From: a virus
Taxonomy: Duplodnaviria > Caudoviricetes
Length of the DNA stretch: 42,055 nt
Virus record (IMG/VR): IMGVR_UViG_3300020120_000284
Location: 1-42,055 of that record
Reading direction: 5' to 3' (one strand)
Below, in pieces: positions 1 through 38,493 of this stretch. The notes beneath the pieces are model-generated. The model did no database searches. It was not told the DNA's origin and saw only the letters and a program-made list of their open reading frames with translations. Every line of letters starts with the position of its first letter. The stretch's first letter is position 1. The translations under genes and the position numbers were made by a program.

Positions 1-149
1 CGATCGTCGTCAACACCGGGGGCAAGCTCTACATCCATGACGGCCACCACCGAATGACCGCGCAGAAGCTTATGGGTAAGACGGAAGCGCCCGCGCGCGT
101 CGTGACGATTAAACTTGCTATGCTTAAACGATGGGCAAACCGAGATTAG
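1..149 (+). CDS. 3' end of ParB/Srx-like N-terminal-domain protein (partial)
   Basis: Frame from nt 3 reads IVVNTGGKLYIHDGHHRMTAQKLMGKTEAPARVVTIKLAMLKRWANRD*; DGHHR is the ParB/Srx motif. Confidence 0.7.
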   Translation, partial: IVVNTGGKLYIHDGHHRMTAQKLMGKTEAPARVVTIKLAMLKRWANRD

Positions 150-742
150 ACCTGTCGGGAAAAACTTTTGGGAGGCTTTGGGTGCTGGAGTGTGCCCGGT
201 TGAATCGGAGGACAGCGTGGTCTTGTCGGTGCACTTGTGGGGCGATGACTGTCGTGCGATCTGACCATCTACTGAGTGGGGTGATCGCTTCTTGTGGATG
301 CCTGATGAGAGAAGCCGTGAGTGCTCGTCGAACCATTCACGGGCTGACCGGTAGTCCCGAATACTATGCCTGGCATGGAATGAAGAGACGCTGTCAGGAT
401 CCGCTCGACAAGGGCTACAAAACATACGGCGCGAAGGGAATCGTTGTTGCGGCGCGCTGGCAATCGTTCGAGAACTTTTTTGCCGACATGGGGCCACGAC
501 CTTCTCAGAGTCACAGCCTAGATCGGTTTCCAAACAATCGGGGAAATTACGAACCTGGAAACGTTCGGTGGGCAACTGACCTTCAGCAAGGCCGGAACAA
601 GACCAACAATCGACTCGTCGAGTTCGAAGGGCGCAGACAATGTCTATCGGCGTGGGCCAGTGAACGGGGGATCAAATACGACACGCTTTATCAACGGCTT
701 GTGCACCTTCGGTGGTCCGTCGAACGGGCCATGGTTCCCTGA
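131..742 (+). CDS. HNH homing endonuclease (family A, copy 1)
   Basis: DLSGKTFGRL..CRCTCG..SCGC..YGAKGI..SLDRFPNNRGNYEPGNVRWAT; visibly lower GC than flanks. Confidence 0.85.
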   Translation: MGKPRLDLSGKTFGRLWVLECARLNRRTAWSCRCTCGAMTVVRSDHLLSGVIASCGCLMREAVSARRTIHGLTGSPEYYAWHGMKRRCQDPLDKGYKTYGAKGIVVAARWQSFENFFADMGPRPSQSHSLDRFPNNRGNYEPGNVRWATDLQQGRNKTNNRLVEFEGRRQCLSAWASERGIKYDTLYQRLVHLRWSVERAMVP

Positions 743-809
743 CCCAGCGGTCAAGTTGCCTAATTGGGTCAGGTTGCACAGGGCGCACAACCCGGGGAGT
801 TTAGGCAAC

Positions 810-1520
810 ATGCTGATCGCCCTGCTCAACCAATCGTCGTACCTGGTCGATAAACTCGATAAGGTCTCCCTAATTGCCCAGGCGGTCTCGAAGCAGCTGC
901 GGCTGCACGCGGCCCCCGCGTGGGCGGCGCTCCCGTGGACGTGCGCGCTCTACCAGGACCCCAACCTGGTGCCCCGGTCGGCCTACCGGCTGTGGCTGCT
1001 GGACGACGCCGACACCGCCGGGGCCCTCGGCTACCACGACCAAGATCCCCACGGCTTTCCCTACGGCAAGGTCTTCGTGAACCCCATCCTAGATTCGGGC
1101 GGCGACCTTATGTCGACGGCCAATTCGATCTCCGTGACGGTCTCGCACGAGTCTCTCGAGATGTTCGGCGACCCCGAGGTCAACCTCTGGGCCCAGATGC
1201 CGGACGGCAACCTCATCGCGTTGGAGCTGGGCGATCCCGTCGAGGGCGACGCCTACCCCATCGGAATCAACGGAATGCCCGTGATGGTGTCGAACTTCGT
1301 GTTCCCCGAGTACTTCGACCAGAACCCCGAGAACACCCGGTTCGATTACATGAAGCGGCTGTCGGCACCATACACGATGACGGCCGGTGGTTATCAGATC
1401 ATTCTCCAGGGCGGGCAGGTCTCCAACGTCTTCGGCGCCGGGTTCCCCGATTGGAAACGACCGGGCAAGGCGTTCCCGGCGGCTCGAACGGCTCGACGTG
1501 CTGCGAAGCTTGCGGCTTAG
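810..1520 (+). CDS. Putative zinc metallopeptidase-like protein
   Basis: ATG 810; ALGYH and SHESLEMFGDP (HExxE-type) motifs; high-GC3 codon usage. Confidence 0.5.
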   Translation: MLIALLNQSSYLVDKLDKVSLIAQAVSKQLRLHAAPAWAALPWTCALYQDPNLVPRSAYRLWLLDDADTAGALGYHDQDPHGFPYGKVFVNPILDSGGDLMSTANSISVTVSHESLEMFGDPEVNLWAQMPDGNLIALELGDPVEGDAYPIGINGMPVMVSNFVFPEYFDQNPENTRFDYMKRLSAPYTMTAGGYQIILQGGQVSNVFGAGFPDWKRPGKAFPAARTARRAAKLAA

Positions 1521-1647: not shown

Positions 1648-1650
1648 ACG

Positions 1651-2169: not shown

Positions 2170-2195
2170 TGGCTGGCGGTGTCGCAGACGGCGTG

Positions 2196-2876: not shown

Positions 2877-2879
2877 GCG

Positions 2880-7037: not shown

Positions 7038-7062
7038 GGGTCGCCAGGGTAGAAGAGTGGGC

Positions 7063-7377
7063 ATGGTGTTGGCCGCGCGTAACGTCCTGGGAGTCGCGCT
7101 GTTCCTAGCGGGCGTCGCGCTCGAAGCGGTGGGCCGCCGGCTCTCGCCGATGGCGGTGGAGCTGACGAAGGACCGGGGCCGCGAGGAGCGGGACCAAGAG
7201 ACCAGGGGGCTCGTCGACGAGATGAACGGCGATGGTCTGGGGTCGGTGTCGTTATCGCCCGAAGCCCTGCGGATGCGGGCCGAGGGAGACGAGCGCCGAG
7301 ACCGTCCGGAACCCGTGGTGTCCAAGCCGTTGGCCGGGAGTGCTGCGGCCCGATTCGCCCGCAAGCAGGTGGGCTAG
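7063..7377 (+). CDS. Hypothetical protein with N-terminal hydrophobic segment
   Basis: ATG 7063; VLGVALFLAGVAL. Confidence 0.55.
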   Translation: MVLAARNVLGVALFLAGVALEAVGRRLSPMAVELTKDRGREERDQETRGLVDEMNGDGLGSVSLSPEALRMRAEGDERRDRPEPVVSKPLAGSAAARFARKQVG

Positions 7378-7380
7378 GCC

Positions 7381-11153: not shown

Positions 11154-11567
11154 ATGGGAAACCTCGTTCTCGACGGTAGCCTGACGCTTGGCCCAGCCAC
11201 GCAGTCAGATGGATCGTTTCCGGCCGCCACCGTCAACGAGCCGCTGTTCTCGACGCCCAACCCCAAGCTGTTCAACGCGGCCACTGGGATCGTGCCGCGT
11301 CAGCTCAACAGTCCGGGGTCGTACCAGGCGCTCTCGGGTGCGGGCGCGACCGACACGGTGGCCAAGGGCGACACCCTGTATTTCAAGACCAACGCCCCGA
11401 TTCTGGTGCGCGCGACCTTCGCGGACCCCGGGGGCGGCGGTGATATCGTGTCGATCGTGCCGGTCTACGGGACCGTTCTGATCGAGCTCAACCCCCTCGG
11501 TTACCTCAAGCTGTTGGAGGCCAAGGGAGTCGCGACGATCGTCTACATGGTAGCGGGTCAATCGTAA
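11154..11567 (+). CDS. Putative head-associated protein
   Basis: 137-aa ORF in head cluster; ends VAGQS*. Confidence 0.6.
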   Translation: MGNLVLDGSLTLGPATQSDGSFPAATVNEPLFSTPNPKLFNAATGIVPRQLNSPGSYQALSGAGATDTVAKGDTLYFKTNAPILVRATFADPGGGGDIVSIVPVYGTVLIELNPLGYLKLLEAKGVATIVYMVAGQS

Positions 11568-11581: not shown

Positions 11582-12130
11582 GTGACGGACGCTGAGACTA
11601 AAAAAGCACGAGCTCGAGAACGATATCGCCGATATCGGGAGCGACACCGCGGACAGGTGAAAACCGAAGCCCAAAAGGAACAAAAACGAGCGGCAGATCT
11701 TCGGTACCAAGAACGAGATCCAGAGCGGACGCGCATCCAACGACGTGCAGCTCGGCGGCGGTACGCAGAGAAACACAGAGAAGAACGGTTGGCTAAGCTT
11801 CGGGAATACGCCAGGTATCTCTACAGTACTCCGGAAGGTCGTGAAAAAAAGCTACGGTACAACCGAATTTGCCGAATGAAAAGCATTTACGGGTTTACAC
11901 AAGAGGATATCGAGATCTTCAATTCCCGAAACGCCTGTGCCATTTGTGGGAACGGATTCACATCAACTCGCGACAAGCATATTGATCACGACCACAAGCG
12001 AGGTCAGACGGCAGTTCGGGGCATCTTGTGCCGAAGGTGTAACAACTCCCTAGCCGCGTTTGATGGGCCGGAACTTATCGCAAAGTTGAATGCTTATTTG
12101 GCGGCTCCACTCGGAAGTTGGAAGCAATAG
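11582..12130 (+). CDS. Endonuclease VII-like homing endonuclease
   Basis: CAICG..HIDHDH..VRGILCRRCN; Arg-rich helical N-terminus; lower GC. Confidence 0.85.
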   Translation: MTDAETKKARARERYRRYRERHRGQVKTEAQKEQKRAADLRYQERDPERTRIQRRAARRRYAEKHREERLAKLREYARYLYSTPEGREKKLRYNRICRMKSIYGFTQEDIEIFNSRNACAICGNGFTSTRDKHIDHDHKRGQTAVRGILCRRCNNSLAAFDGPELIAKLNAYLAAPLGSWKQ

Positions 12131-12206
12131 GGGTGAGCGGTCAGTCTTAGCGACTTGCTCGGCTTCGAAACGTGAGAGAAGCTACGGACACCCAAGGAGC
12201 GAGACG

Positions 12207-16609: not shown

Positions 16610-17023
16610 ATGGGATTCACGGAAGACGAGAAGGTCAGAATTAGGCACCATCTCGGATTTTTGAACGTTTCGACGGCCGCGACGTTTTCGCTCGGTACGC
16701 CCGCGAACGTCCAGACCCAGTTCATCATCGAGCCCGCGATGGACTTGGTGCCGGTGGCGGCCGAGAAGTTGGCCCGCACGCTGTTGGACCGGCTGGACGT
16801 CGTGGACTTCCAGATCTTAGACGACGCCGACACCCTCGTGGCGTCGCGCGTCGGGGCCATCGACCTCAACCCCATCGAGTTCGAGAAGATCCTCCAGCGC
16901 TACAACTACATCCGTGGGGCCTTGGCCAACCTGCTGGGAATTTTCCCGAATCCTTACGACAAACGATTTTGGAACCCAAATGGTGGTGGCGGCATGGGAA
17001 TCAACTGTCCGGTCACCAACTGA
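16610..17023 (+). CDS. Putative head-tail adaptor/head completion protein
   Basis: Helical 137-aa protein downstream of capsid; FTEDEKVRIRHHLG start. Confidence 0.55.
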   Translation: MGFTEDEKVRIRHHLGFLNVSTAATFSLGTPANVQTQFIIEPAMDLVPVAAEKLARTLLDRLDVVDFQILDDADTLVASRVGAIDLNPIEFEKILQRYNYIRGALANLLGIFPNPYDKRFWNPNGGGGMGINCPVTN

Positions 17024-17635
17024 ATGCGTGGAAAGCGGTGTCTGAAGTGTGGGGTCATCCAGCCGGTTGAACGGTTCTACAAGGCCGGCCCCACCCAGCC
17101 CCAGACATACGGGGGCATTCGGATGCCCTGTAAGGCGTGTGTTGCTGCGTGGGTCAAGACCTATAGGCCCACCTACTGTTCAAGACCCGGGGTGAAGGAA
17201 CTTTTGCGGGAGCGGGATCGCGCGAAGGTGAAGAAGAACCCTGGTGTCTACACGGCGATTCGGGAGAGGTTCGACAAGAACCACCCGAATTATGTTCGCG
17301 ACCGGTACGCCAAAGACCCTTCTGGATTCCTGTTGAGGGCGGCCGTCAGGAGGACGAGAAAAAAGAAGACTGGTGGGACCCTCACAAAGGCCGAATGGAG
17401 GGCCGTCCTAAGCATCCGGGGCCGGCGGTGCTTCTATTGCGGGCGAGAAGGTGTTCCGCTCCAGATAGAACACATGGTGCCGGTGGTGAGGGGTGGGTGT
17501 ACAGTCGTGGGGAACGTCGTGCCGGCCTGCAAACGATGCAACGCCAAAAAGGGAACCAAGACGGCCGCCGAGTTCATGGAGTCGGTCCAGTTAAAGAACT
17601 CTTCTTTGGTCTGTTGTTTTCGGCGTCGTTCGTGA
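17024..17635 (+). CDS. HNH endonuclease (McrA-like)
   Basis: CFYCG..IEHMVP..GG..GNVVPACKRCNAKK; N-terminal CxxC..CxxC. Confidence 0.85.
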   Translation: MRGKRCLKCGVIQPVERFYKAGPTQPQTYGGIRMPCKACVAAWVKTYRPTYCSRPGVKELLRERDRAKVKKNPGVYTAIRERFDKNHPNYVRDRYAKDPSGFLLRAAVRRTRKKKTGGTLTKAEWRAVLSIRGRRCFYCGREGVPLQIEHMVPVVRGGCTVVGNVVPACKRCNAKKGTKTAAEFMESVQLKNSSLVCCFRRRS

Positions 17636-22378: not shown

Positions 22379-23069
22379 CGCCGGCTGCTCGAGGTCCTGA
22401 ACGATAGAGCTCGGGTGACAACGCCTGCTCTTCCGTCAATCCTCGACTGATGCGTTGATAGAATGTTTCGCGAGAGACCGAACGGATCTTAAGCCATTCG
22501 GCCAACGTTTTGCGCTCACCCCCCACTTCAATCCATCGGGTGTTGCGGCGTGGGTGAGTGATGACCCGTGGACGACGATTGTTACTTTGCTCGGTTGCCG
22601 TTGCCCACCGAACGTTCCCCGGTTCGTAGTTCCCGTCGTTATTGGGGTAGCGGTCGAGGGAGTGATTTGGTGTGGGACGTCTTCCGACGTCTTCGAGGAA
22701 TGCCACATAGGAGTCCTTCCATCGGGAGCACACCGAGATTCCACGGGCTCCATAGTGTGGGTAGTTTCTGCAGCGGGGATTGAAACACCGCTGGTTCATT
22801 GAGTCCCAGCAACGATATTCGGGAGTACCTCCGTGCGAAGCTTCACCGTGGGTCTTCGACGCGGCACCGAGGGCCCTGCCCAATTCGATCCTGAGACACC
22901 CACACGAACGTGAGGCCTTGGTTCGGAGTGAGTTCCCGCTGACGGCACGTTCTTCATCGGAGCAAGAACACTTGCAGACCCAATATTGGGTGCGACCCTT
23001 TTTAGGACCGATGCGTATCACGGTGAGCCTTTCGAACACGAGTCCCGTAAGATCAATGAACCTCGGCAT
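22341..23069 (-). CDS. HNH homing endonuclease (family A, copy 2), antisense
   Basis: AGGAGG RBS; MPRFIDLTG..CKCSC..SCGC..SLDRYPNNDGNYEPGNVRWAT. Confidence 0.85.
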   Translation of the reverse strand: MPRFIDLTGLVFERLTVIRIGPKKGRTQYWVCKCSCSDEERAVSGNSLRTKASRSCGCLRIELGRALGAASKTHGEASHGGTPEYRCWDSMNQRCFNPRCRNYPHYGARGISVCSRWKDSYVAFLEDVGRRPTPNHSLDRYPNNDGNYEPGNVRWATATEQSNNRRPRVITHPRRNTRWIEVGGERKTLAEWLKIRSVSRETFYQRISRGLTEEQALSPELYRSGPRAAGVTLPPTHPRTRQ

Positions 23070-23123: not shown

Positions 23124-23558
23124 TTGAGCCAAAGAATTAAGGGACAAGAAATCGTCATCAACGTCATCAATGCGGGGACCCTCGAAGATACTTTGACGGC
23201 CATAACCGATTTCAATGACGAAGATATGTTGGAGATAAAACAACAGGGATACCTGGGCGAGACCAGCAACCGGGGCGACGAGATCTACAACGGCACCAAG
23301 TTCGACCTGTCGATGCACCTGCAGACGCAGGACTGGTTCCGGTTCAAGAACGCGATTCTGGCGCGCGCCCGTCGCAAGCAGCCGGACCTCGTGTTCAACG
23401 TGACGGTCACGTACTTCTTTCCCAACGGCGACAACCCCACCGTCACGTACCCGGATGTCAATTGGGGCCCCATCCCCAAGAACATCCCGAGCCGTGGCGA
23501 CTATGTGAAGGTCAAGATGGAGGGCTTCGTCGGCTCGACTGACGACGCTCTCTCGTAA
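23124..23558 (+). CDS. Tail tube protein
   Basis: 144 aa, follows sheath; TTG start; RIKGQE..YLGET. Confidence 0.7.
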   Translation: MSQRIKGQEIVINVINAGTLEDTLTAITDFNDEDMLEIKQQGYLGETSNRGDEIYNGTKFDLSMHLQTQDWFRFKNAILARARRKQPDLVFNVTVTYFFPNGDNPTVTYPDVNWGPIPKNIPSRGDYVKVKMEGFVGSTDDALS

Positions 23559-24765: not shown

Positions 24766-24774
24766 CCTTCTGGG

Positions 24775-25257
24775 ATGGCCGAGCGGGCAGGTAGTGAGGG
24801 ATTTTGGGAGCACGTGCGATTTGTTTCGCCAGAACAGCGGGCCCGCATGACGCAAAAGCAGCGCGAGGTCCGAGCCGCCATGTCGCCGGAACAACGAGCG
24901 GCTTACAACAAGACCCACACGGAATACAGAGCAAAGGCTCACAAGCTGCATCCCGAAAGAGAACGCGATTACCAACGCAGAATCAAAACACCAAAGCGGG
25001 CGTGGAATCACCGGGATTGGATGTTGCGCTCCAAATATGGGCTGACCATCGAGCAGTACAACGAAATGGTTCAGCAATGTGATGGGCGATGTCACCTGTG
25101 CCACCGTAAATACGACAAATTGGTCATCGACCACTGCCACAAGACAGGCAAGGTTCGCGGTCTATTATGCAACCGGTGTAATCTTGGGTTGGGTCACCTA
25201 GGGGATTCACTAGAGGGTGTTCTTCTGGCTCTGAAGTACATGGAAGGACACAAGTAA
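24775..25257 (+). CDS. Endonuclease VII-like homing endonuclease
   Basis: KYGLTIEQY..CHLC..IDHCHKTGKVRGLLCNRCN. Confidence 0.9.
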   Translation: MAERAGSEGFWEHVRFVSPEQRARMTQKQREVRAAMSPEQRAAYNKTHTEYRAKAHKLHPERERDYQRRIKTPKRAWNHRDWMLRSKYGLTIEQYNEMVQQCDGRCHLCHRKYDKLVIDHCHKTGKVRGLLCNRCNLGLGHLGDSLEGVLLALKYMEGHK

Positions 25258-25259
25258 AA

Positions 25260-27191
25260 TTGGGCGACACCGTAGAGATTCGCAGCGTATTGCGGCTGGA
25301 CGACCAATCCAGCGCGGTGGTCGACAAGCTGAAGAGCGGCTACGAGCACCTGGGCGAGCGGGTCCACGAGGTCGAGCATGAAATGGCCAGCATGCTCAAG
25401 CAGACGCTCGCGGTGGCGGCGGGCTTCCAGCTGTCCAACGGGATCGAGTCGGTCAAGGAGTTCGGACACGAGCTGATCGACGCGGCCAAAAACGCCGGCA
25501 TGGAGACCAAGCAGTTGGCCGGGGCCATCGCGATGGGCGACAAGTCGGGCCAGACGTACGAATCGTTAACCGCGAAGGCCGGCAAGCTGCACGAAGAGCT
25601 CGAGGACCTGGGGGTGGCGGCGGGTGCGTCGACGTCGTCGATTGTCGATGCCTTCACGACGATCCAGGCGCGTTCTCAGAAGTCGGCCGAAGAGGTCCGC
25701 GGCCTGACCGAACAGATGGTCTACGCGAGCCGCGCGGTACCGGGCGGGATGGAGGGTATGGCCAATTCGTTCCGCGACCTGGAGAGCGGGATCGTTCGGC
25801 CGCGCAACGCGATGGTCCAGCTGATGGTGATGACCGGCACGGTCGAGGGCTCGGCCAAGAAGGTGGCGAAGGGGCTCAACGCCATGATGCAGCAGGGGCC
25901 GGCCGGCATGGAGAAGGTGACGGCCCTGGCGGAGCAAGCGATCTCCAAAATGGCCGAGAAGATGAAGGCCGCGCCCATGACGTTCGGGCAGGTCGTCGAC
26001 TCGTTGAAGGACCTACGGGAGCAGGCGTTCGAGGCGATGGGCGGCCCCATTCTCAAAGCGATCCAGGGGCCGCTCGGCCAGCTCCGCCGGTACTTCATGG
26101 ACAACAAGAAGTCGCTCGAGGAGTGGGCGACGATGGCGGGTGAGAAGGTGGGGGTCTGGATCAATGAAGCCGCCACCAAGATCCAGGAGGGCTTCCAGTA
26201 CCTCAAGACCCACGCAACCGAGATCAAGGACGCGATCGTTTCGGCCGCGAACGTCGCGAAGTCGGTGGTCGAGTGGATCATCGCGCACCGCGAGATGATC
26301 GCGATCGCGTTCGGCGCGAAGCTGGGGATCGGGGCCCTCGGTAGTCTCGCGTCGGGCGTTGGGTCGGGCATCGGCGCGGTCAAAGGGATTGCGGCGGCGG
26401 GCGCCCCGGCCCTTGGGATCGCGGGCGGAACGGCCGCGGCGTTTGCCGCGACGGTCGCGGCGTTTGCGGCGGCCGTGGGGGCGTGGACGTGGGCGATCAG
26501 CGAGTGGAACAAGCTGCAGGACCTCACGCACGGCAAGAGCGATGCCCTGCAAAACGAAGAGGCCCGCAAAGTACGGCTCCAGCAGATGGGCGGGTCGGTC
26601 GACAAGATCAACACCAAGGAGTTCGATCAACTGCGCAAGAAGTTCGTCGAGCAGGCCGACGCCATGGGGATGACGGAGCGGGCGGCCGGCGCGTACGCCG
26701 ATAGCTTGTGGAACCAGCACCGCGCGCTGCGCGAGATGGCGGACCAGGCGGACGCCGCCGCCACCAAGGCGGATCGGGGGCAGGAATTTGAGGGCGCCAG
26801 CGACTTGGTCGTCCTGTACGACAAGGCCGTCCAAACGCACAACACCGGCATGATGCAGTACGTGGCGAACGTCCTGGCGGGCAACCAGACGCTCCAGAAC
26901 GCGTTGCTGGCGTCGGGCGCGAACGTCGAGGGCGGGTTCGACGCCCTGGGCGACCTCGTGATGGGTAAGTCCGAGGAGTTCGGCAAGATCCTGAAGGGCA
27001 TGGGGAACGATGCCGGCAAGGGCAAGCTGCCGGAAAAGATGTCGGTCAACTTCAACGGCTCGACCTTCAACATCAAGCAGGATTTCCGCGACCAGGACCC
27101 CGACCGCATCATGCTGACGTTCAAGCGGGACCTCGTGAGGGCCGCGGTCAACCGCTCACAAGCGCACGTCGGCACGAGCTTCGGTATGTAG
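25260..27191 (+). CDS. Tape measure protein
   Basis: 643 aa, helical Ala-rich with hydrophobic segment, after chaperones; TTG start. Confidence 0.75.
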   Translation: MGDTVEIRSVLRLDDQSSAVVDKLKSGYEHLGERVHEVEHEMASMLKQTLAVAAGFQLSNGIESVKEFGHELIDAAKNAGMETKQLAGAIAMGDKSGQTYESLTAKAGKLHEELEDLGVAAGASTSSIVDAFTTIQARSQKSAEEVRGLTEQMVYASRAVPGGMEGMANSFRDLESGIVRPRNAMVQLMVMTGTVEGSAKKVAKGLNAMMQQGPAGMEKVTALAEQAISKMAEKMKAAPMTFGQVVDSLKDLREQAFEAMGGPILKAIQGPLGQLRRYFMDNKKSLEEWATMAGEKVGVWINEAATKIQEGFQYLKTHATEIKDAIVSAANVAKSVVEWIIAHREMIAIAFGAKLGIGALGSLASGVGSGIGAVKGIAAAGAPALGIAGGTAAAFAATVAAFAAAVGAWTWAISEWNKLQDLTHGKSDALQNEEARKVRLQQMGGSVDKINTKEFDQLRKKFVEQADAMGMTERAAGAYADSLWNQHRALREMADQADAAATKADRGQEFEGASDLVVLYDKAVQTHNTGMMQYVANVLAGNQTLQNALLASGANVEGGFDALGDLVMGKSEEFGKILKGMGNDAGKGKLPEKMSVNFNGSTFNIKQDFRDQDPDRIMLTFKRDLVRAAVNRSQAHVGTSFGM

Positions 27192-27485: not shown

Positions 27486-28121
27486 CTATCGTTGGGGCGG
27501 CTCTGTGAGCGCTCGTTCGACAGACCAGCCCATTCGAAGGCGTTGCCAGATTCGTAGACGGGTCGAGCCTAATTCTTCCGCCCAGGCCGAGATGCACTGA
27601 GTTTTTGCATTGAAGGTCAGCAGGACGGCCGTCCTACGATTTCGGGATTGCTCCTTTTTGGTGGCCCACCGGACGTTGCCGGGTTCGTAGTTGCCGTCGT
27701 TGTTGGGGAACCGATCGATAGACCAATCGGGACCCGGTCTCGGTCCTACGTACGCGTAAAAAGCTTCGAAGGAAGAAACCCAGTCCGGATGAACCCGAAT
27801 CCCGCGACCCCCATAGTTTGGATAGGCCTCGTTGTTGGGGTTCAAGCAGCGGTCTTTTAGGTGTTGCCAGACGTAAAAGGTTGGGTTCTTCCTTCCACCG
27901 GGAAGTCTCGACAGACCATGAGTCGTTTTCACGGGATTGGTCTCGGTCGCCAAACACCCGCAGGACTTGGTGTTACCTGACTTGAGGTTGCTGGGTGGGA
28001 CCTCCGTTTGGTTTCCACACTCACAAGCACAGCCCCAACGTAGTCGTTTGCCTGGAACCTTGATCCTGGTGTGCGCCGTTAGACGTCCAAACTTCTGGCC
28101 CGTGAGATCCTCATCTCGCAT
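27486..28121 (-). CDS. HNH homing endonuclease (family A, copy 3), antisense
   Basis: DLTGQKFGRL..CACECG..SCGC..YGGRGI..SIDRFPNNDGNYEPGNVRWAT. Confidence 0.85.
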   Translation of the reverse strand: MRDEDLTGQKFGRLTAHTRIKVPGKRLRWGCACECGNQTEVPPSNLKSGNTKSCGCLATETNPVKTTHGLSRLPGGRKNPTFYVWQHLKDRCLNPNNEAYPNYGGRGIRVHPDWVSSFEAFYAYVGPRPGPDWSIDRFPNNDGNYEPGNVRWATKKEQSRNRRTAVLLTFNAKTQCISAWAEELGSTRLRIWQRLRMGWSVERALTEPPQR

Positions 28122-28137: not shown

Positions 28138-29331
28138 GTGTCCGAAGGTAGCTCTGTATCGATCCAGGAATTGGGGGGAGACAAGCGACTCCTGGAATTG
28201 CGGGGACCAGGTCAGCCATTCAAAGGGGCCACTTGGAAGGGTACTCAAAAGGTTATCACAAGTTGGTACCCGGGTAACGCCATTGAGGCGACCCAGCAGG
28301 TCCTGGGACCCCAGGAGGAGCCGTCCGAGTGGGAGGGTGAGTGGAACCGCACGCGCCTGGGCCGCACCCCCTGTCTGTTCGTCGACGGCAACGGCAGTCA
28401 GACGAAGGTGGTGTCGCCGACCTTCCTGAACGACGTGATGGACGACTTCCGGATCCGGGGGTCGAAGCTAAGGGTCACCTGGACGGTCGTCGACGACAGC
28501 GGAACCCCCCGGGCCTCGAAGGTACGGGAGGGACGGCTGGCGTCGTTCGAGGTGCAGGTCGATACGGCCTATGACTTCCGGTGGAAGGCCAAGTTCGATT
28601 GGAGTGGGCGGGGCGGCACCCAGCAGAAGGTCGTGGCGACCCGCGACGGTGACCTCGACTCGTCCGTCAGGGCCATGACGTCCGCGTACAACGACTTCGT
28701 CGCGACGGCCGCGCGCGCCAAGCTCGTGACGTCCAGGGCAACGCTCTTGAAAGCGCCAACGACCCTGTCGCTCGGTCAGCTCGAACAGCTCACGCAGGTG
28801 CCCATCAAGCTGGTGGAGGCGGCGCTCCGGCCCATCGGTAAGGCAACGGCCGACCTCGCCCAGCTCGGCAACATCGTGGCGTCGGTCCGGGCCATCCCGT
28901 TCCAGATCGCAAACGCCGCGCTCGCCCGCGCGAATGATGCGATCGCCGTGGCCAACCAGTTTCACGACAAGATGGCGAGGCGTCCGGCCGAGCTCAACAC
29001 CACCAAGTCGAGTGTATCGGCGCTGACGCGGGCGTCCCGGTACTTCTGGCAAACCACGGGTTCGGCCGAGCAGGTGGCGCAGCAGGCCCAGGCGTTGAAG
29101 GCGCGGCTGACGTCCGGCGGCAAGCACCCCAACGACGTGCAGCCCCGCCGGACCGTCGCGATCCACGTCGTGAAGGCGGGCGATACGTTGCCGGCGATCT
29201 CACAGCAGTATTTCGGTACGCCCGACCGCGCCACCGACATCGCGCGCGCCAACCGTCTGCCCTGGCACCAGAACGCCCTGAACCTCGGCCGGACCCTCGT
29301 GATCCCACTGGTCGACTCAAACAAGAGCTAA
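28138..29331 (+). CDS. LysM-domain tail tube initiator/baseplate protein
   Basis: C-terminal HVVKAGDTLPAISQQYFG..IARAN LysM; follows tape measure. Confidence 0.75.
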   Translation: MSEGSSVSIQELGGDKRLLELRGPGQPFKGATWKGTQKVITSWYPGNAIEATQQVLGPQEEPSEWEGEWNRTRLGRTPCLFVDGNGSQTKVVSPTFLNDVMDDFRIRGSKLRVTWTVVDDSGTPRASKVREGRLASFEVQVDTAYDFRWKAKFDWSGRGGTQQKVVATRDGDLDSSVRAMTSAYNDFVATAARAKLVTSRATLLKAPTTLSLGQLEQLTQVPIKLVEAALRPIGKATADLAQLGNIVASVRAIPFQIANAALARANDAIAVANQFHDKMARRPAELNTTKSSVSALTRASRYFWQTTGSAEQVAQQAQALKARLTSGGKHPNDVQPRRTVAIHVVKAGDTLPAISQQYFGTPDRATDIARANRLPWHQNALNLGRTLVIPLVDSNKS

Positions 29332-29566: not shown

Positions 29567-29600
29567 CCAGGGAGATAACTTGCTCCCTGGCTCTTTCCTT
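29567..29600 (+). terminator. Hairpin CCAGGGAG/CTCCCTGG with pyrimidine tail
   Basis: 8-bp stem, 8-nt loop, followed by CTCTTTCCTT. Confidence 0.45.
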
Positions 29601-29680
29601 GCCTCACCCGACCACACCTAGCCCGACCCGACCATATCGCGCCTTAACAGGTCTTGCCCAGCTTTGCCGCGCCTCATCAA
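29596..29680 (+). repeat. Degenerate pentanucleotide array (RYCNN)
   Basis: tcctt gcctc acccg accac accta gcccg acccg accat atcgc gcctt aacag gtctt gccca gcttt gccgc gcctc atcaa. Confidence 0.7.
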
Positions 29681-29727
29681 CACCATGGCGCTACCCTAGG
29701 CCATGGCCGAGCGGGAAGCAGGGGAAG

Positions 29728-30351
29728 TTACCGATTGCCGAACTTCGGAGGGGTCGTCAGGGTTTTCTCATCTGACCATCCCTGGCGCTTCCGGTAGCTG
29801 ATGGTCGACACGTGGTACCCGCGGTCTTTGGCCCAATCGACTGCACACATCGTTCGTCCCTCGAAGGTCAACCAAACGTTCGACCTTCTGTTACGACTCT
29901 GCGCGCCTGAAAGTGCCCAGATCACGTTTTCTGGTTCGTAATCACGATCGTTGTTTTTTCGCTCTAGCGTGTGAAGCGGGGAAGGTGGGGGCCCAACATC
30001 ATCAAGAAATGCAGTGAAGCTTTTCTTCCATCGGTCGCAGACCTTAATTCCGCGGGCACCGTAATCCTTGTACTTTGAGACTAGGGGGTTCGAACAGCGT
30101 TGTTTCATTGTCTGCCAACGCATGTACATCGGGTGCCAATTTTTTCGTCCCCCAGTAGTCAAACCATGGGTAGTTAGGGCAGCGCGAGAACGTTCTTTCC
30201 TGATATGCCCGCAGGAAATCACTTTTTTACCAAGAACATCCGTGCGCTGGACCTCCTTCTCAACCCCACAAGAGCAGCGGACGCGAATGTATCGCCGACG
30301 CTCTGCTGGTCCAAGGATGGTAAGTTCGCCGTATGGTGATTCGGGTTCCAT
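29728..30351 (-). CDS. HNH homing endonuclease (family A, copy 4), antisense
   Basis: VRCSCG..SCGH..YGARGIKVCDRW..TLERKNNDRDYEPENVIWA. Confidence 0.85.
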   Translation of the reverse strand: MEPESPYGELTILGPAERRRYIRVRCSCGVEKEVQRTDVLGKKVISCGHIRKERSRAALTTHGLTTGGRKNWHPMYMRWQTMKQRCSNPLVSKYKDYGARGIKVCDRWKKSFTAFLDDVGPPPSPLHTLERKNNDRDYEPENVIWALSGAQSRNRRSNVWLTFEGRTMCAVDWAKDRGYHVSTISYRKRQGWSDEKTLTTPPKFGNR

Positions 30352-30366
30352 GCGAGAGCTTAGCAC

Positions 30367-32157
30367 ATGCCTGAAAAGGAAAGTCTTTCACAGGACTATT
30401 TTCCCTCAGCGAAATTGCGGTTGATCATCCGGTTCGAAGAATTCGGGCGGGTCCAGCTGGTCAAGAGCAAGGCACCGGTGAAACTTGCCCATACTTTGCG
30501 TGGTACGACGTCAACGCGAGGTGCCATGACGGTCGAGAAGGATCCGACGGCGCCGGCTGGGACGACCCGTTACCTCGTGTTGCCGGCGAGCGGTGCGGCT
30601 TCCGGGGGCCCGCAGAAGGAGGACGCCAGCACCGATCAGCTGACGTGGCCGATCGGTGGGATCATCCCGAAGGACGCCTCTTGGAAATTAAACGGCATCA
30701 GAACGGCCAGCGAGCTCAAAACGACGATCAAATTCGTCGACATGCCGTTCGATCCCCGGTGCATCCGGTCGTGTGCGGTCGAGTACTACTTGGGCACGCT
30801 GGCGGAGCGCGACTACTTCGATGGGGTCGGCGGGGCCGTCAGGGGTGCGTCCGATCGCAACGGCGCGGGCGGCGAGAGTCTGTTGATCCTGCCGGACCAG
30901 TGGGTCGATCAGAACGGGAGGATCCGCACGAACCTGCGGTTTCAGGGATGGGTGGACGAGTGGGAGGTCGAGTGGCCCGACGAAGACGAGCCGCGCGTCA
31001 CGCTGACGTGTCGCGACAACACCAAGGTGCTGATCGACCAGGAGGCCCCCCACAAGCTGGTGATCGCGGCCAACAAGCCGATTGACGAGGCGATCGCCGC
31101 CTACATCGCGAACTTTCCGCAGTGCGCGGGCCTGTCGGTGGAGTATCGGCCCGGCGGGATCGATCCCCCGAAGCTTGGGCCAGCGCTCGCCAAGACGGCG
31201 TTCAAGCCGAAGCTCGGTCCCACGCCGACGGGCGGCGGGGGCGGCGGTGGAAGTTCGAGCAAGCTGTCGGTGTGGGACTACCTGACGGACGTCTGCGGAT
31301 CGCTCGGCCAGATCATCCGGATGGACGGCACCGTCATCGTGGTGCAGGAGCCGCGGTCGCTGTTGTCGACGGAGGCGCCCGCGCGCGCGGACGATCCCTT
31401 CACGACCCGAACGGTCGCGGGCCTCACGATGCAGCACCGACACTTCATCTACGGGCGCAACGTCAAGAACTACAAGATCGCGCGTCGCTTCGGCAAACAA
31501 GCACCACAAAACGTGGAGGTCCGCAGCTACAGCACGCTGCGCAAGACCATGCTGGTGGAGCGGTATCCGCTGAAGGGTCAGTCGATCGTGACGGACGCCA
31601 ACCCTGGTGACGGCCATAGCGAGCAAAAGTATTTGGTCTGGAGGGTCCAGGGCATTACCGACCGCAAAGTCCTGCGGGTGATCGCGCAGTCCGTGTACGA
31701 GACGGTCGGGCGCAATGAGTTGTCCGTCAACATCCAGACCCACAACCTCGCGAGCTTCGGTGGTGACAACACCGATCCCGACATCCTCGACATGAAGGTG
31801 GGGGACCCGGTCGAGCTGTTGGTCGCGCGCGACCAGGACTACAACAGTCTGACCAACATCGAACAGAACATGCTGATCGCCGAGAGTGGGAAGTTGCTGT
31901 TGGAGGCGGCCGGTTATTCCGCCGGCATCGCCGATGCTTACGCCAAGGTCTACGGAGACTCGGGGTTTCAATCGACCTTCAGGACTCGGGACTTTGCGGT
32001 CGACTGGAGCATCGAGGACGGCGTCGCCATCACGGTCGGGGCCGTCAACTACATCGAGGTCCGGGCCGACAAGGTGCTGCCCCAGGGCGAGCAGCAGCTC
32101 CAGAACTACGGCGGCAGTAGCGTGGCGACCAACCAGAAGCAGCCAGGGACGACCTGA
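30367..32157 (+). CDS. Baseplate hub protein (gp27/gpD-like)
   Basis: 596 aa; FQGWVDEW..TLTCRDNT; position before spike. Confidence 0.65.
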   Translation: MPEKESLSQDYFPSAKLRLIIRFEEFGRVQLVKSKAPVKLAHTLRGTTSTRGAMTVEKDPTAPAGTTRYLVLPASGAASGGPQKEDASTDQLTWPIGGIIPKDASWKLNGIRTASELKTTIKFVDMPFDPRCIRSCAVEYYLGTLAERDYFDGVGGAVRGASDRNGAGGESLLILPDQWVDQNGRIRTNLRFQGWVDEWEVEWPDEDEPRVTLTCRDNTKVLIDQEAPHKLVIAANKPIDEAIAAYIANFPQCAGLSVEYRPGGIDPPKLGPALAKTAFKPKLGPTPTGGGGGGGSSSKLSVWDYLTDVCGSLGQIIRMDGTVIVVQEPRSLLSTEAPARADDPFTTRTVAGLTMQHRHFIYGRNVKNYKIARRFGKQAPQNVEVRSYSTLRKTMLVERYPLKGQSIVTDANPGDGHSEQKYLVWRVQGITDRKVLRVIAQSVYETVGRNELSVNIQTHNLASFGGDNTDPDILDMKVGDPVELLVARDQDYNSLTNIEQNMLIAESGKLLLEAAGYSAGIADAYAKVYGDSGFQSTFRTRDFAVDWSIEDGVAITVGAVNYIEVRADKVLPQGEQQLQNYGGSSVATNQKQPGTT

Positions 32158-33394: not shown

Positions 33395-34297
33395 ATGCCG
33401 GATTCTGGATGGGGTTCAGCGCCGTGGGGTGGGTTTCCCTGGGGCCTTGCGGGAGGCGTGACGCCTGCGTCCGTCGAGCTCGCGGAGGCCGTGGCGATCC
33501 GTGAGAACATGGTCCAGCTGTTCTTCGTCGAGGAGCTCGAGTTCACGGGTCTGTTGGGTCTGAACGATGCGAGCTACCCCACGCACTACGCCGTCACGCC
33601 GGTCGCCGGGACCATTGGGTCCGACGGGCTACCGGCCCGGTCGGTCGGTGTCTTGTTGGTCGAGAACGTGGCGGATGGGGGAATCCCCGGCAGCATCGTG
33701 AACCTGACGCTGGACCGCCCGTTGAGTCCCTATCCGGCCCAGTATCTCGTGACGGTGCAAAACCTCGTTACCATCCCGATGACCGTGCTGAACCCGACGA
33801 ACGCCAACGCCACGTTCTTCGGAACCCAGCAGCCCGCCCCCAACCTGACGGTCCAGCAGTCGCTACCGTCGCGCGACATCGCGCACCCCGACACATTGGA
33901 GGCGGCGCTCGACCCCCTGCCCAACGCCCAGGACCCCACGGTCTTGGGGTCGATCCCCACGGGTTCGGACGGTGACTACGCGTTCGACGAGGGCATCGTC
34001 AATCTGAAGAAGCGGGTGTTCCGCCGGCTCACCACGACCAAGGGTCGGTTTCTCCACTTGGGCGCCAGCTACGGCGTGGGCGTCCAGAACTACCTGAAGC
34101 GGCTGAACATCCCGTCGGTGCGGCAGCAGATCGCGGCCGACGCGGAGTCACAGATCTCGCAGGAGCCGGACGTCCAGAAGGTGAAGGTCCGGGTCGTGGT
34201 GTCGGTGGACGTCCCGGAACAATCGAGGTTCGTCATCCTGATCAAGCCGGTCGCCGGTAAACCCGTCCGGTTCGATGCCCCCCTGATCGCACTTTAA
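33395..34297 (+). CDS. Baseplate wedge protein with gp25/gpW-like C-terminal domain
   Basis: RRLTTTKG.FLH..YGVG..QEPDV; precedes gpJ. Confidence 0.65.
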   Translation: MPDSGWGSAPWGGFPWGLAGGVTPASVELAEAVAIRENMVQLFFVEELEFTGLLGLNDASYPTHYAVTPVAGTIGSDGLPARSVGVLLVENVADGGIPGSIVNLTLDRPLSPYPAQYLVTVQNLVTIPMTVLNPTNANATFFGTQQPAPNLTVQQSLPSRDIAHPDTLEAALDPLPNAQDPTVLGSIPTGSDGDYAFDEGIVNLKKRVFRRLTTTKGRFLHLGASYGVGVQNYLKRLNIPSVRQQIAADAESQISQEPDVQKVKVRVVVSVDVPEQSRFVILIKPVAGKPVRFDAPLIAL

Positions 34298-34863
34298 CCA
34301 GTGAGACCGGTGACGACCTGCTGTAGAAATTCTTTGAATTGGAGCACCGTCAAGATCCCGCGCGCGCGGTTGATCCAAGATCCGCACAACACAACGTTTC
34401 CATCTTCATAACCCTTCGTGTTGTCCAACCGGTCGATGGACACGATCCAAAGGTCGGTGAACTCGTGGGTCATGGGCACATGCGTCCAAAAGCACCGACC
34501 TTCTTGCCGGTCCCACAAGGCTTGAAGATACGTTTTATCTATCGTGCAGGGACAATGCTGGCCGTTGCGTTCTCTGGCGGATGAATGTTGGCGAGCTTTT
34601 CGGAGGGTGGTGGTCGCCCAATTCTTGATTGCGTCCCTTCTGGCGCGATCACGATGTTTTTGGGGGTTCTCGGCATATCGGCGGCGGCAGTAGGCCCGCA
34701 CTGCTTCGGAGTTATTTTTGTTGTAGTTTTTGTGGTACTTTCTCGTTTTTTCGGGATGAGAATCCCTCCACTTTTTTTGTTACTCCTTCAGTTCTTCGAT
34801 GTGAGCAGCGCGCCAGTGTCTGTTGTACTGGCGCTGTCGTTCTTTGCGTTCCTCGTCGGTCAT
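34294..34863 (-). pseudogene. His-Me endonuclease with premature in-frame stop, antisense
   Basis: MTDEERKERQRQY..ELKE*QKKW.. continues in frame to GRCFWT..SIDRLDNTKGYEDGNV; TAA at 34782-34780. Confidence 0.75.
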
Positions 34864-34888: not shown

Positions 34889-36022
34889 ATGGATCTGCCC
34901 TCCCGTCTTGATCTATTTGCTCGAGGAAGGCAATTTGTGCTGCAGCGGGCCGACAAGATCGACCCCGCGCAGGTCGACATCCAGGGGTCCGACGTCAACG
35001 TGTTCGTCGGTTCGACGTCGGTCGTGGCGTTCGAGGTCGTCAAGCAGCTGGCGTACTCGATCAATCGGCTGCTGTTGGACGGCGCCGAGGGCGAAGACCT
35101 CGACCGGTATGCGTGGGACCGGTATCAGCTGGCGCGCAAGGGCGCGAGCCCAGCGGTCGGTACCGTCACGTTTTCGAGGAACTCGGCGGTCGTGGGGGCT
35201 GGGACCGTTCCGGTCGGCACGAAGGTCGCGACCAACGACGGCATCGAATACCTGACGACGACGGCCGCTTCATTTGGTGCGTCCGACCTGGTGGTGTCGG
35301 CAGACGTTCAGGCGGTTCAATCGGGCAAGTCGTTTCAGGTTGGGGCCAACCAGATCGTTAGGATCGGCGCCAACGCCGCTCCCGTCTTCGACCAGACCAT
35401 CGTGGTCAACAACGACCTCCCGACGGCCGGCGGTGAGGACCGCGAGGACGACGAGACGTTCAAGTCGAGGATCCGCGACTTCTGGAACACGGCACGCCGC
35501 GGCACGCTCGCCGCTATCGAGTTCGGCGCCAAGGCTGTGCCGGGTGTGGTGTCGGCCCAAGCGGTTGAGGTCATCACGACCGGCAACACGCCCGCGCGTG
35601 TCGTCCTGCTGTACATCGCGGACAGCAGCGGCGTGGCGAGCCGGGCGCTCGCCAACACGGTGTCGAATTCGCTCGGTGAGTTCCGGGCCGGCGGGATCGC
35701 CGTGATCGTGTCGACCTCGGTCCCGCAGATCGTCGACATCGTGTTGAAGCTGGTGTTCCAGGGGAACGTCGACACCGTCACGCTCAGCGCGGCGATCGTC
35801 GGGTCCGTCATCGAGTTCGTCAATTCGATTCCCGTGAACGCGCCGTTGCTGGTGGCGGATCTTCAAGCCGTGCTGAGTCGGTTCCGGTCCGACGGGTTGG
35901 TCGTCACGACTGACGCGACCACCCCGGCCAACAGCTCGATCGTGTCGCCCACGGGCGACATCGTGCCGGACGCCGGTAAGACGATCCGAACGACATCGTC
36001 CAACGTCACCCTATCGGTGTAG
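34889..36022 (+). CDS. Baseplate J-like protein
   Basis: AEGEDLD, RKGASPA.G.VTF, GGEDREDDETFKSRI, RGT..AI..VPGV motifs. Confidence 0.9.
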   Translation: MDLPSRLDLFARGRQFVLQRADKIDPAQVDIQGSDVNVFVGSTSVVAFEVVKQLAYSINRLLLDGAEGEDLDRYAWDRYQLARKGASPAVGTVTFSRNSAVVGAGTVPVGTKVATNDGIEYLTTTAASFGASDLVVSADVQAVQSGKSFQVGANQIVRIGANAAPVFDQTIVVNNDLPTAGGEDREDDETFKSRIRDFWNTARRGTLAAIEFGAKAVPGVVSAQAVEVITTGNTPARVVLLYIADSSGVASRALANTVSNSLGEFRAGGIAVIVSTSVPQIVDIVLKLVFQGNVDTVTLSAAIVGSVIEFVNSIPVNAPLLVADLQAVLSRFRSDGLVVTTDATTPANSSIVSPTGDIVPDAGKTIRTTSSNVTLSV

Positions 36023-36025
36023 CGG

Positions 36026-37861
36026 ATGACCGCCCCCATCATCCCGACGGACGGCCCTCTTTCGGAAGCTGACCTCCAGCGGATCTGGGAGTCGAGCGTC
36101 GACGACCTGTTCGCCCAACCGCTGACGGAGCTCGGTGACGGCTTTGGGCTCGAGGTGTACGGCCAGATGTTCGCGCAGCTGGCGCGCGTGTCCCGGGCGG
36201 TCGATGTGTCGACGCAAGCGATGTACATCCTGCCGTGGAGCGGCCAGACCAACGATCCGGCTCGAGGTGAAGCGCGCGCGACCGTCACGCTGACGTTCAC
36301 CCGGACCCAGCGGCTCGAGTTGCCGATGGTGGTGACGGGCGACGTCTTCATCGACGAAGAGACGACCGACTGGGGAGACAATCCGGGGGACTCCGGCCAG
36401 GTCGTCAACACGGGTCGCCGCTACACGCTGGTCGAGCCCTTGGTGTTTGCCCCGGGGGTCGCGGGCCCGCTCACGGGGTTGGCCCAGGCTGAACGACCGG
36501 GCTGGGGCTACAACAACCCGCAGCCCGACACGATCGTTGCGGTCGAGCAGGAGGGCGGCGACTTCGTCGGGTTGAACGCGACGGTCGCGGTACCGGCCGT
36601 GAGTTCCGCGACGATCACGGGATCGCCGGAGCCCGACACCTTCATCCCGGCGCACGTGGGTCAGTACTTTCTGCTGACGGCTGGGGCGAACGCCGGGAAG
36701 GTCGTGAGGGCCACGGGCTACGTGGGACCCGTGGCGGGCCAGGGCGGCACCATCCTGGTGGACCGGGAGCTGGCGCTCGACGGAACGTTCGCCGGCACGT
36801 TCTTCGAGGGCGAGGCGGTCGTCCAGGCCGGGACCGGCGCGACCGGTGTGTTCCTGGGGGCAGGCCCGACCGTCATGGTGGTGGCGATCCTGACGGGGCC
36901 GGTGGGTGGTGCCGGCGTAATCACGGGCGTCGTGAGTGGCGCGACCTTCACGCCCACCGCCATCGCGGTGGATTCCGGCCTGACACCCGAGGTAGGGGCC
37001 GCGGCGTGGCGTTCCTTCAGCTGGGCGGCTGACTGGGGCCTCTTGGTGACGAACACGGCCTCGCCCACGGGCGGGCGGCTCGGCGCGCTGGACGAGCTCC
37101 TGGGAGGCGAGCGCAACATCCCGATGGGTGCGGGCGAGGACGACGAGCGATACCGGCGCCGGGGGTCGCGGCCCGCGGACGTCGTGGCGCCCAACGCGAT
37201 CGTTCGCGTGATGAACGGGGCGTTGGCGCCCGTTGGTCTGACCGGGTGCTTCCGGGAGGCGGGACAGTCGACGTTGCCGGGCTTCTACTACGACCGCTCC
37301 GACCTGGGCGATTGGTACGACATGGACGCGTGGGTGCTGAACGGCCCGTTGGACCCGTCGCGCTACGGGTGGTTCGAGGGTGAACCGGTCCAACAGCTTG
37401 ATCCGGTGACCGGGAGGATCGCGACGGGGCGCGCGATCCTGAAGTACGATTTCATCGGTCCCGGGCCCCAGCTCTATCTGGAGTCGGTAGCGGCGGGGTC
37501 CGGGACGTTCGTCGCGTCGTTGCCGATGGTCGGCCAGCGCAGCGGTCGTGCCTATACGCCACCGCCCGGTAACGTCATCGGCGGCCCGGACCCGGCGCTT
37601 CGGTATCGGTACCTGTTCGATTACCTGGAGATGCGGGCGTTCTTCTTGATCGCGGTCCCGACCGTGAACTTCGGGGAGTTCGGGTTCGCGTGGGACGTCT
37701 ACCCGACCGGGGCGTTTGATTCGGCTCCCTTCGCATCCTTCTACGACGGGTTCGCGGCGTCCGCGAGTGCTCTTTACTCGTCGGTCTACCGGTCGATCAA
37801 CCCGATAAAGGCCGGCGGCGTTGGATTTTCAGTCATACGTGACGACGGTCCATGTCCCTGA
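36026..37861 (+). CDS. Baseplate wedge/tail protein (gpI-like position)
   Basis: Follows gpJ; GEDDERYR; C-terminal IKAGGV. Confidence 0.6.
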   Translation: MTAPIIPTDGPLSEADLQRIWESSVDDLFAQPLTELGDGFGLEVYGQMFAQLARVSRAVDVSTQAMYILPWSGQTNDPARGEARATVTLTFTRTQRLELPMVVTGDVFIDEETTDWGDNPGDSGQVVNTGRRYTLVEPLVFAPGVAGPLTGLAQAERPGWGYNNPQPDTIVAVEQEGGDFVGLNATVAVPAVSSATITGSPEPDTFIPAHVGQYFLLTAGANAGKVVRATGYVGPVAGQGGTILVDRELALDGTFAGTFFEGEAVVQAGTGATGVFLGAGPTVMVVAILTGPVGGAGVITGVVSGATFTPTAIAVDSGLTPEVGAAAWRSFSWAADWGLLVTNTASPTGGRLGALDELLGGERNIPMGAGEDDERYRRRGSRPADVVAPNAIVRVMNGALAPVGLTGCFREAGQSTLPGFYYDRSDLGDWYDMDAWVLNGPLDPSRYGWFEGEPVQQLDPVTGRIATGRAILKYDFIGPGPQLYLESVAAGSGTFVASLPMVGQRSGRAYTPPPGNVIGGPDPALRYRYLFDYLEMRAFFLIAVPTVNFGEFGFAWDVYPTGAFDSAPFASFYDGFAASASALYSSVYRSINPIKAGGVGFSVIRDDGPCP

Positions 37862-38493
37862 CGAGTCGATGCCCTGGTTGCAGGGCTGCTCATCCTCACC
37901 AGTGTGCAGCTTGCAAGGCATACAAACGGGCTTGGGCAGCGGCTCACAAGAAACCATACGTCGCCACTGAAAAATCGAGGGCTCAACGCCACGCTTACTA
38001 TCTAGCCCATCGTCACGAATGGTCGGTAAGTTCTCCCGAGGTTCAGGCGAGAGCTAAAAAGAAGTACTACGAAACCCACAAAGCCACGGTGAAGGCTCGG
38101 TCCAAGGCTTGGAAGGCGGCCAACCCGGAGAGGGTGAAGACCTCATCGTGTAAGGGGATTCGCTCCTGGAGGGCGAGGAATCCCACCAAGGTGAAGGCTC
38201 AAAAGGCGGCCTGGAAACATCGTAGACGGGCAGCGGGTCCGCTGAAAACATCAACGGTCGCCGCTATCCTGCTGAATTCAAATGGATGCGTGTATTGCGG
38301 GAGTCCTGGGCCCCTGACGTTGGAGCATCTTTTGGCGACGACAAAGGGAGGAACTAACGAACCGGCGAACCTCAAGGCGGCCTGCGTATCGTGTAATTCT
38401 TCAAAACAGGACAAGCCGTGGAAGCTGTGGTTCCGGAAGCAGGCGTTCTACTCGGTCGAACGGGAACGCCAGATCGACGGACCCTGTCCTTAG
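37852..38493 (+). CDS. HNH endonuclease (McrA-like)
   Basis: CVYCG..TLEH..GGTNEPANLKAACVSCNSSK. Confidence 0.85.
   Translation: MSLTSRCPGCRAAHPHQCAACKAYKRAWAAAHKKPYVATEKSRAQRHAYYLAHRHEWSVSSPEVQARAKKKYYETHKATVKARSKAWKAANPERVKTSSCKGIRSWRARNPTKVKAQKAAWKHRRRAAGPLKTSTVAAILLNSNGCVYCGSPGPLTLEHLLATTKGGTNEPANLKAACVSCNSSKQDKPWKLWFRKQAFYSVERERQIDGPCP

Follow-up and report, generated by a model that had tools for sequence, protein, structure and literature searches.

Nuclease genes at phage gene junctions appear to travel with respelled copies of their neighbors' ends

The 42,055-nt stretch of DNA analyzed here (IMG/VR virus record IMGVR_UViG_3300020120_000284; "the window" always means this whole stretch) is the structural module of a G+C-rich contractile-tailed phage and carries nine nuclease open reading frames (ORFs). 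We find it probable that these are free-standing homing cassettes, each consisting of a nuclease gene and a respelled copy of its neighbor's end, and that at four of the sites the old end of the neighbor lies stranded beyond the nuclease. The cassettes are optional and sit at fixed junctions, and empty alleles at sites 2 and 5 use the stranded end. From sequence comparison, we infer that empty alleles are cut, that the lesion is repaired by recombination, and that respelling provides immunity.

The matched genes in the window are those for the portal, major head, sheath, LysM protein, and baseplate J; the tube and hub genes were named from position and weak matches, and the tape measure gene from position and length. 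Near-identical pieces of the window are present in soil metagenome contigs; no RNA data set was listed as containing it. All nine nucleases (9/9) are housed at gene junctions, total about 5.46 kb (13.0% of the window), and belong to four subfamilies: PHROG 374 type (four), EndoVII (two), HNH (two), and PHROG 3322 type (one). Thus, the number, families, extent (about 5.5 kb, 13%), and boundary positions proposed in an initial annotation of this DNA were all re-found. Sites are numbered after their nucleases:

Nuclease 1, 131..742, plus strand: PHROG 374 type; shares 19 nt with the end of the upstream gene
Nuclease 2, 11582..12130, plus strand: EndoVII, motif intact
Nuclease 3, 17024..17635, plus strand: HNH, motif intact
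Nuclease 4, 22341..23069, minus strand: PHROG 374 type with a CapR-like zinc finger; sheath/tube junction
Nuclease 5, 24775..25257, plus strand: EndoVII, motif intact
Nuclease 6, 27486..28121, minus strand: PHROG 374 type; end 4 nt past a conserved palindrome
Nuclease 7, 29728..30351, minus strand: PHROG 374 type; alternative GTG start at 30366; sister of the L012 hub-site nuclease
Nuclease 8, 34294..34863, minus strand: PHROG 3322 type; in-frame stop at 34780-34782 (codon 28)
Nuclease 9, 37852..38493, plus strand: HNH, motif intact

In agreement with the initial annotation, the nucleases do not lie inside an intron or intein: an Rfam search of the window returned no match, and hence no recognizable intron, and the host ORFs beside the nucleases are whole when compared with orthologs. 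A PDB search with nuclease 6 gave no real match.

The occupied and empty states can be compared directly at two sites. Seven soil runs were compared with window positions 11000-39000 at 80% likeness, a range outside which site 1 falls. At site 2, one X4 contig (depth 7.6; 52 on the shorter side) runs from 11549 on to 12136 across 3 intervening letters, and gene 11154 then ends in frame on the duplicated end, or relic, that the window holds beyond the nuclease. At site 5, one X1 contig (depth 3.1; 45 on the shorter side) connects 24782 with 25290 through 22 intervening letters, and the tape measure gene starts in frame on the relic, at 24775. Both joints give termini resembling those of G001 and G002, two loci that are syntenic with the window at about 70% DNA identity and from which all nine nucleases are absent; the tape measure start of G002 also matches the nuclease 5 start. 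Since the frame is kept and the termini are like those of G001 and G002, chance joints are unlikely. The replacement ends found in the window at sites 2 and 5 are not the ends that the nuclease-free soil contigs use. Because the empty alleles use the relic at these two sites, the relic is the original end, and simple duplication followed by decay is ruled out there. Another empty form at site 5 has joints from 24755 to 25261 with 134 letters between (X3, X4). For sites 3, 4, 6, 7, 8, and 9, no joints were listed in the seven runs, which says nothing on absence.

Relics, defined as a duplicated gene end across the nuclease, occur at four of the nine sites (2, 5, 7, and 9), in line with the "at least three" second termini of the initial annotation:

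Site 2 replacement end, 11550..11567, plus strand: end of gene 11154-11567, VAGQS and stop
Site 2 relic, 12133..12150, plus strand: VSGQS and stop; the nuclease-free contig uses 12136-12150 as gene end
Site 5 relic, 24766..24782, plus strand: first 8 nt of the tape measure gene with the box formerly upstream of it; forms the present start of nuclease 5
Site 5 replacement start, 25260..25289, plus strand: tape measure gene; 9 of 30 nt and one residue differ from the empty allele (hand count)
Site 7 relic, 29703..29727, plus strand: hub start, MAEREAGE
Site 9 replacement end, 37820..37861, plus strand: end of gene 36026-37861, DGPCP and stop; final 10 nt shared with nuclease 9
Site 9 relic, 38476..38493, plus strand: DGPCP and stop; now the C-terminus and stop of nuclease 9

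To place these sites among relatives, we fetched 118 loci with a tube alignment (92 once near-copies were removed); the tube protein as a single query found no viral relatives, and a baseplate J query found distant GenBank phages only. Nuclease profiles covered the same families as in the window, so that other nuclease families would escape, and the related loci other than G001 and G002 held 34 nuclease ORFs of these families at the same kinds of junction. The relic scan covered 43 nuclease ORFs in 74 tests against shuffled nulls. Nine matches fell below p=0.02, six of which are credible against about 1.5 expected: window sites 2 and 9 (p<=0.0033) and four in relatives. The site 7 relic (p=0.037) is weak by itself and lies at about the same codon position as the hub relic of L012, and the site 5 relic was seen by comparison only. 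In the relatives, L012 has a hub-start relic (MADEFETPEQT versus MSDQSFESPEQT), L083 has relics of the tube start and of the gene 16610 end, and L102 has a relic of the gene 16610 start that doubles as the nuclease's own N-terminus. Codons of the relic end mostly in G/C in L012, L083 (gene 16610), and L102, and more of those in the working copy end in A/T.

The three remaining matches at p<0.02 were rejected by eye: the L006 N match lies inside sheath coding, the nuclease 8 N match inside the upstream gene, and the nuclease 9 N match out of frame within the nuclease. Candidate short relics past the sheath stop in L006, L021, and L089 were non-significant and were left out of the counts, and an exact-repeat search of the window did not place the relics among the 20 largest of at least 60 repeat families. 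We also rejected the idea that relics are target-mimic operators, since relics 2, 7, and 9 lie at the nuclease 3' end, away from its start.

A wider survey took in 80 loci of other phages with the PHROG 374 type (71 distinct, 65 testable, 149 tests). It added two clear relics, at the end of a DnaB-like helicase gene (L178) and at a 12-residue start (L234); in the latter, the copies share 12 residues and 9 of the 11 non-Met codons differ. Relics are thus genuine and occur in many phages, although most insertions show none. Phages both related and unrelated to that of the window share this anatomy, as do several nuclease families, in keeping with the general strategy suggested by the initial annotation.

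The second line of evidence is the spelling of the gene ends next to the nucleases. We computed a cumulative score for A/T-ending codons from each of 67 gene termini in the window, a set that excluded a few short or unclear genes, three nuclease neighbors among them. Seven of the top eight tract scores are nuclease-adjacent (LysM, tube, hub, first gene, baseplate J, gene 16610, and gene 36026). With the 99th percentile of scores at 822 interior starts as threshold, nuclease-adjacent termini exceed it in 7 of 14 cases and other termini in 8 of 53 (Fisher p=0.010), which bears out the earlier claim that tracts are stronger beside nucleases; for 3' ends alone, the figures are 3/6 and 2/28 (p=0.03). 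Besides the site 9 replacement end listed above, the tracts are as follows:

3' tract of the upstream ParB-like gene fragment, 108..149, plus strand: A/T-ending; partly dual-coding with nuclease 1; contains a -10-like box; relic not found
3' tract of gene 16610-17023, 16937..17023, plus strand: A/T-ending, 28 codons; relic not found
Recoded 5' tract of the tail tube gene, 23124..23249, plus strand: 41 codons; no relic in the window, relic in L083
Recoded 5' tract of the LysM protein gene, 28138..28284, plus strand: 48 codons; no coding relic
Recoded 5' tract of the baseplate hub-like gene, 30367..30522, plus strand: patchy
Recoded 5' tract of baseplate J, 34889..34936, plus strand: 15 codons; no relic

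The limits initially drawn for the tube, LysM, baseplate J, and both 3' tracts agree with ours; the hub tract is patchy and reaches further, to 30522. Amino-acid identity to G001 and G002 stays near the gene-body level across the six longer tracts, and synonymous differences are mostly raised (tube, 0.57-0.70 in the tract versus 0.25-0.28 in the gene body; LysM against G002, 0.87 versus 0.40). Normal amino-acid identity together with more synonymous differences makes the recoded ends look respelled rather than derived from a distant donor; the comparison thus favors respelled over foreign ends.

For the relatives, 513 5' ends and 520 3' ends without a nuclease served as controls, and the weak matches L014 and L015 were not treated as nucleases. 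Nuclease-adjacent 5' ends show an A/T excess (n=11, p=9e-5, though nine are tube starts, a class rich in A/T in any case; n=7, p=0.003), and nuclease-adjacent 3' ends show little (n=7, p=0.07). The tube start of the window ranks highest in A/T excess of 86 listed tube genes. Gene 16610-17023 (137 aa) and its orthologs in L016, L060, L083, L089, and L102 form a hot spot, with nucleases of two families at both ends in different phages and the strongest respelling seen in relatives. L137 has a site of the same kind at about 7050-7675, where an EndoVII-type gene follows a baseplate J gene with A/T-ending last codons.

A quick tree of the PHROG 374-type nucleases only (39 rows; one fragment and L014 left out) shows that they cluster by site, with 10 label changes compared with 18.2 when labels are shuffled, and 0 of 200 shuffles as low. 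Nuclease 4 groups with nucleases of the same sheath/tube junction in other phages. The pair formed by nuclease 7 and its L012 sister at the hub (support 99) is the sole strongly supported single-site group, and their hub junctions fall at about the same codon.

The following course of events would account for these results. During mixed infection, the nuclease would nick or cut an empty allele near the end of the target gene, and recombinational repair would copy the nuclease in together with its flank. Because the flank codes for nearly the same protein, the target gene would survive, and the changed codons would protect the carrier from cutting. A junction 3-11 codons inside the gene (sites 2, 5, 7, and 9) would leave a relic behind, which may be reused as a nuclease start (site 5) or stop (site 9); a junction at or outside the terminus (probably sites 1, 3, 4, 6, and 8) would leave just a respelled flank of 13-48 codons, like ordinary intronless homing. 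Respelling likely built up while the flank traveled with the nuclease, with the protein constraint kept and the phage G/C codon bias released, and selection for immunity would add to it.

Several results weigh against this account. Relics were not found at sites 1, 3, 4, 6, and 8, either by the relic scan or by comparison with relatives; clear relics in relatives number just 4 among the 34 nuclease insertions; and in the wider survey of 65 unrelated loci, 6 of 149 tests were significant with about 3 expected. Each empty joint is a single low-depth contig (depth 3-8) found at 80% likeness. The replacement start at site 5 is no more A/T-rich than the empty allele, and at site 9, the G002 end is equally far from the relic and the new end (hand count). 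The claim that the empty allele matches the relic and not the recoded end holds at sites 2 and 5 and weakly at site 7; at site 9, relatives of about 70% identity point neither way. For 5' ends alone, the window contrast is non-significant (4/8 adjacent versus 6/25 other, p=0.17) because gene starts are A/T-rich in general; nuclease-adjacent tube starts differ marginally from other tube starts (excess 0.124, n=11 with the window included, versus 0.077, n=73; p=0.06); and the relatives' 12 3' ends that face a nuclease's tail show no excess (p=0.25). Tract-like ends without a nuclease occur in G002 at 4 of 9 corresponding ends and in G001 at 1 of 9, so that the recoded termini which the initial annotation expected to be lacking from empty relatives are partly present there; they may be ramps or scars of lost elements. 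Finally, the usual Asp/Glu-His motif is found in nucleases 2, 3, 5, and 9; the PHROG 374-type nucleases 1, 4, 6, and 7 have Asp/Glu-Arg instead, and nuclease 8 has an Asp-Arg motif and its interrupting stop. The "His-Me" label given earlier is thus loose, fitting the first four and not the latter five. As Asp/Glu-Arg was found in 94 of 94 PHROG 374-type motif matches, it is a family-wide trait of this type, whose members are putative homing enzymes.

The alternative that survives best is ordinary intronless homing at all sites, in which intergenic nucleases co-convert polymorphic ends and relics are rare by-products of imprecise first insertion. This picture suits the five relic-free sites, among them those with the two longest tracts, and likewise most insertions in relatives, at which no relic is visible. 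Furthermore, tracts of 40-150 nt resemble the target of MobE, which nicks nucleotides 114-131 of the neighboring nrdB, with immunity by polymorphism proposed (PMC2790892). However, the empty alleles at sites 2 and 5 put the junctions within coding sequence, and the sister nucleases of the window and L012 share nearly the same hub codon. Intronless homing is improbable as an explanation of every site; it probably describes five of them and differs from the respelled-cassette explanation in scope, not in kind. Insertion within terminal codons, claimed initially for all, accordingly stands at four of nine sites, and the other five fit intergenic insertion with a resistant flank. The replacement of gene termini is right in essence for the four and plausible for the five, which leaves the initial claim largely confirmed but overgeneralized.

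Considerably less likely is that the A/T richness of the ends reflects gene expression (signals for transcription or translation of the nuclease, or a general A/T ramp at gene starts) and does not mark immunity. In its favor, every one of the window's seven long tracts is on the nuclease 5' side, TANNNT boxes stand 5-6 nt upstream of the starts of nucleases 1, 2, 5, and 7, the A/T excess of 5' ends without a nuclease averages 0.10 (n=513), and tracts 1 and 9 are partly within the nuclease frame; at sites 1 and 9, expression signals likely contribute. Yet the tracts of L102, L089, L060, L016, and L083 lie on the nuclease 3' side and reach at least the 96th percentile of 56 empty orthologs, tracts of 41-51 codons are longer than a ramp of about 10 codons, and the duplicated termini would go unexplained. 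We give very little credence to the idea that the replacement ends are foreign, captured from a distant phage richer in A/T, in the manner suggested for fungal gene hybrids (PMC3630166): A/T-ending codons do make up 29-52% of the nuclease genes (eight measured in frame) compared with about 13% of host gene bodies, but the near-normal amino-acid identity of the six longer tracts speaks against it, and a donor within the same phage group is possible, the relatives being only about 70% identical. Simple target-site duplication at insertion with decay of the spare copy, to which the short repeats around four nucleases might point, is scarcely credible, as it predicts a working copy close to the empty allele and a drifting spare, whereas sites 2 and 5 show the opposite and the L234 copies keep their residues with most codons changed.

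The replaced-end layout is established in fungal mitochondria (PMC3630166, PMC7487136, PMC8393795), where mORFs form gene hybrids in Allomyces macrogynus atp6 and in Glomus atp6, atp9, cox2, and nad3 (PMC3630166). As in the window, an intron-less nuclease gene brings an in-frame replacement end, and the displaced native end matches nuclease-free relatives (PMC3630166). The mORFs encode LAGLIDADG or GIY-YIG enzymes, affect C-termini only, displace pieces of about 50-280 nt, and carry replacements judged foreign; the window has phage HNH/EndoVII-type enzymes, affects both N- and C-termini, leaves relics of 3-11 codons, and has replacements apparently respelled within the clade. The window cassettes, therefore, work like an mORF but are not mORFs.

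Among phages, the T-even nucleases MobE, SegF, and SegG are, like those of the window, optional free-standing nucleases beside essential genes, often overlapping them, with co-conversion of flanks (PMC2988022, PMC2790892), and the nuclease load of T4 is 11% (PMC2988022) compared with 13% for the window. They are described as intergenic, with cuts hundreds to thousands of bases away, and the parts of these two papers at hand describe no duplicated or stranded termini. F-CphI, a free-standing homing endonuclease with the EndoVII catalytic motif of nucleases 2 and 5, cuts a neighboring conserved gene of empty phages and is protected by a group I intron (PMC6083498), whereas the window has no Rfam intron match and its protection would come from respelling. 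The HEG islands of ICP1 and other phages likewise place many nucleases at structural genes and include CapR-type zinc fingers, but interrupted genes are rescued there by splicing, and the accessible text mentions neither "recod" nor "start codon" (PMC10448857). Overall, these and other phage papers describe, in the sections available, free-standing nucleases and not stranded termini (PMC2988022, PMC10448857, PMC12724721, PMC2248197, PMC6083498). Our literature search, whose scope did not extend to most subscription papers and supplements, found no phage report of replaced or stranded gene ends.

The components are thus individually known, and the value of the present case lies in the number of sites and the direct empty-allele evidence. 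It would carry over to phages, and to the starts of genes, a mechanism known from fungal mitochondria, and it would allow the cutting position of uncharacterized phage nucleases to be predicted from sequence alone, through the respelled tract and the relic junction. Sites 2 and 5 supply natural pairs of empty and occupied alleles, predicted to be cut and uncut, respectively. It would also explain why conserved structural genes contain unusual patches of codons and chimeric ends, which affect start-codon calls and gene trees. As a tentative generalization, more doubtful than not in our own estimate, terminus replacement may be a general third way, beside introns and inteins, for unrelated nuclease families to reside inside essential phage genes; the tracts would then be durable scars that map targets and past invasions even after nuclease loss (compare the nuclease-free G002), and the Asp-Arg family would be an uncharacterized class of homing enzymes.

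Other features of the window and its relatives were recorded. TANNNT boxes 5-7 nt before starts are found at the LysM gene and several G002 genes as well as at nucleases 1, 2, 5, and 7, and suggest leaderless transcripts; a sigma-70 scan showed no excess. The palindrome GCGCATCGATGCGC has six exact intergenic copies (2883, 7019, 16566, 23689, 27468, and 41544; 0.02 expected), also precedes genes in G002, and is likely a phage regulator or late-promoter site. The copy 4 nt from the nuclease 6 end could be an upstream element of the LysM gene, left stranded there. At 17587-17859, a gene with a conserved counterpart in G002 lacks an ATG, GTG, or TTG start, and nuclease 3 runs 16 codons into it in a different frame.

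The tail-protein-like gene at 4602-5735, in which 32% of codons end in A/T along its whole length, is unmatched in G001 and G002 and is probably a recently swapped module. After the presumed tail chaperone gene, a second conserved ORF (24406-24765) lies in another frame with no clear start, which we take, by analogy with tail chaperones, to be possibly a product of programmed frameshifting. The 370-nt stretch between the LysM and hub genes (29332-29700) is unmatched in the 92 related loci and contains a short patch of 5-nt repeats and a possible 91-codon reverse ORF. One G002 gene (L126, 6554-7333, minus strand) looks to us by eye like a Cas7/RAMP-type protein, and it had no Pfam match. Three tracts of 5-nt repeats occur in intergenic DNA of G002 (L004, L127), two of them at the junctions of sites 5 and 8.

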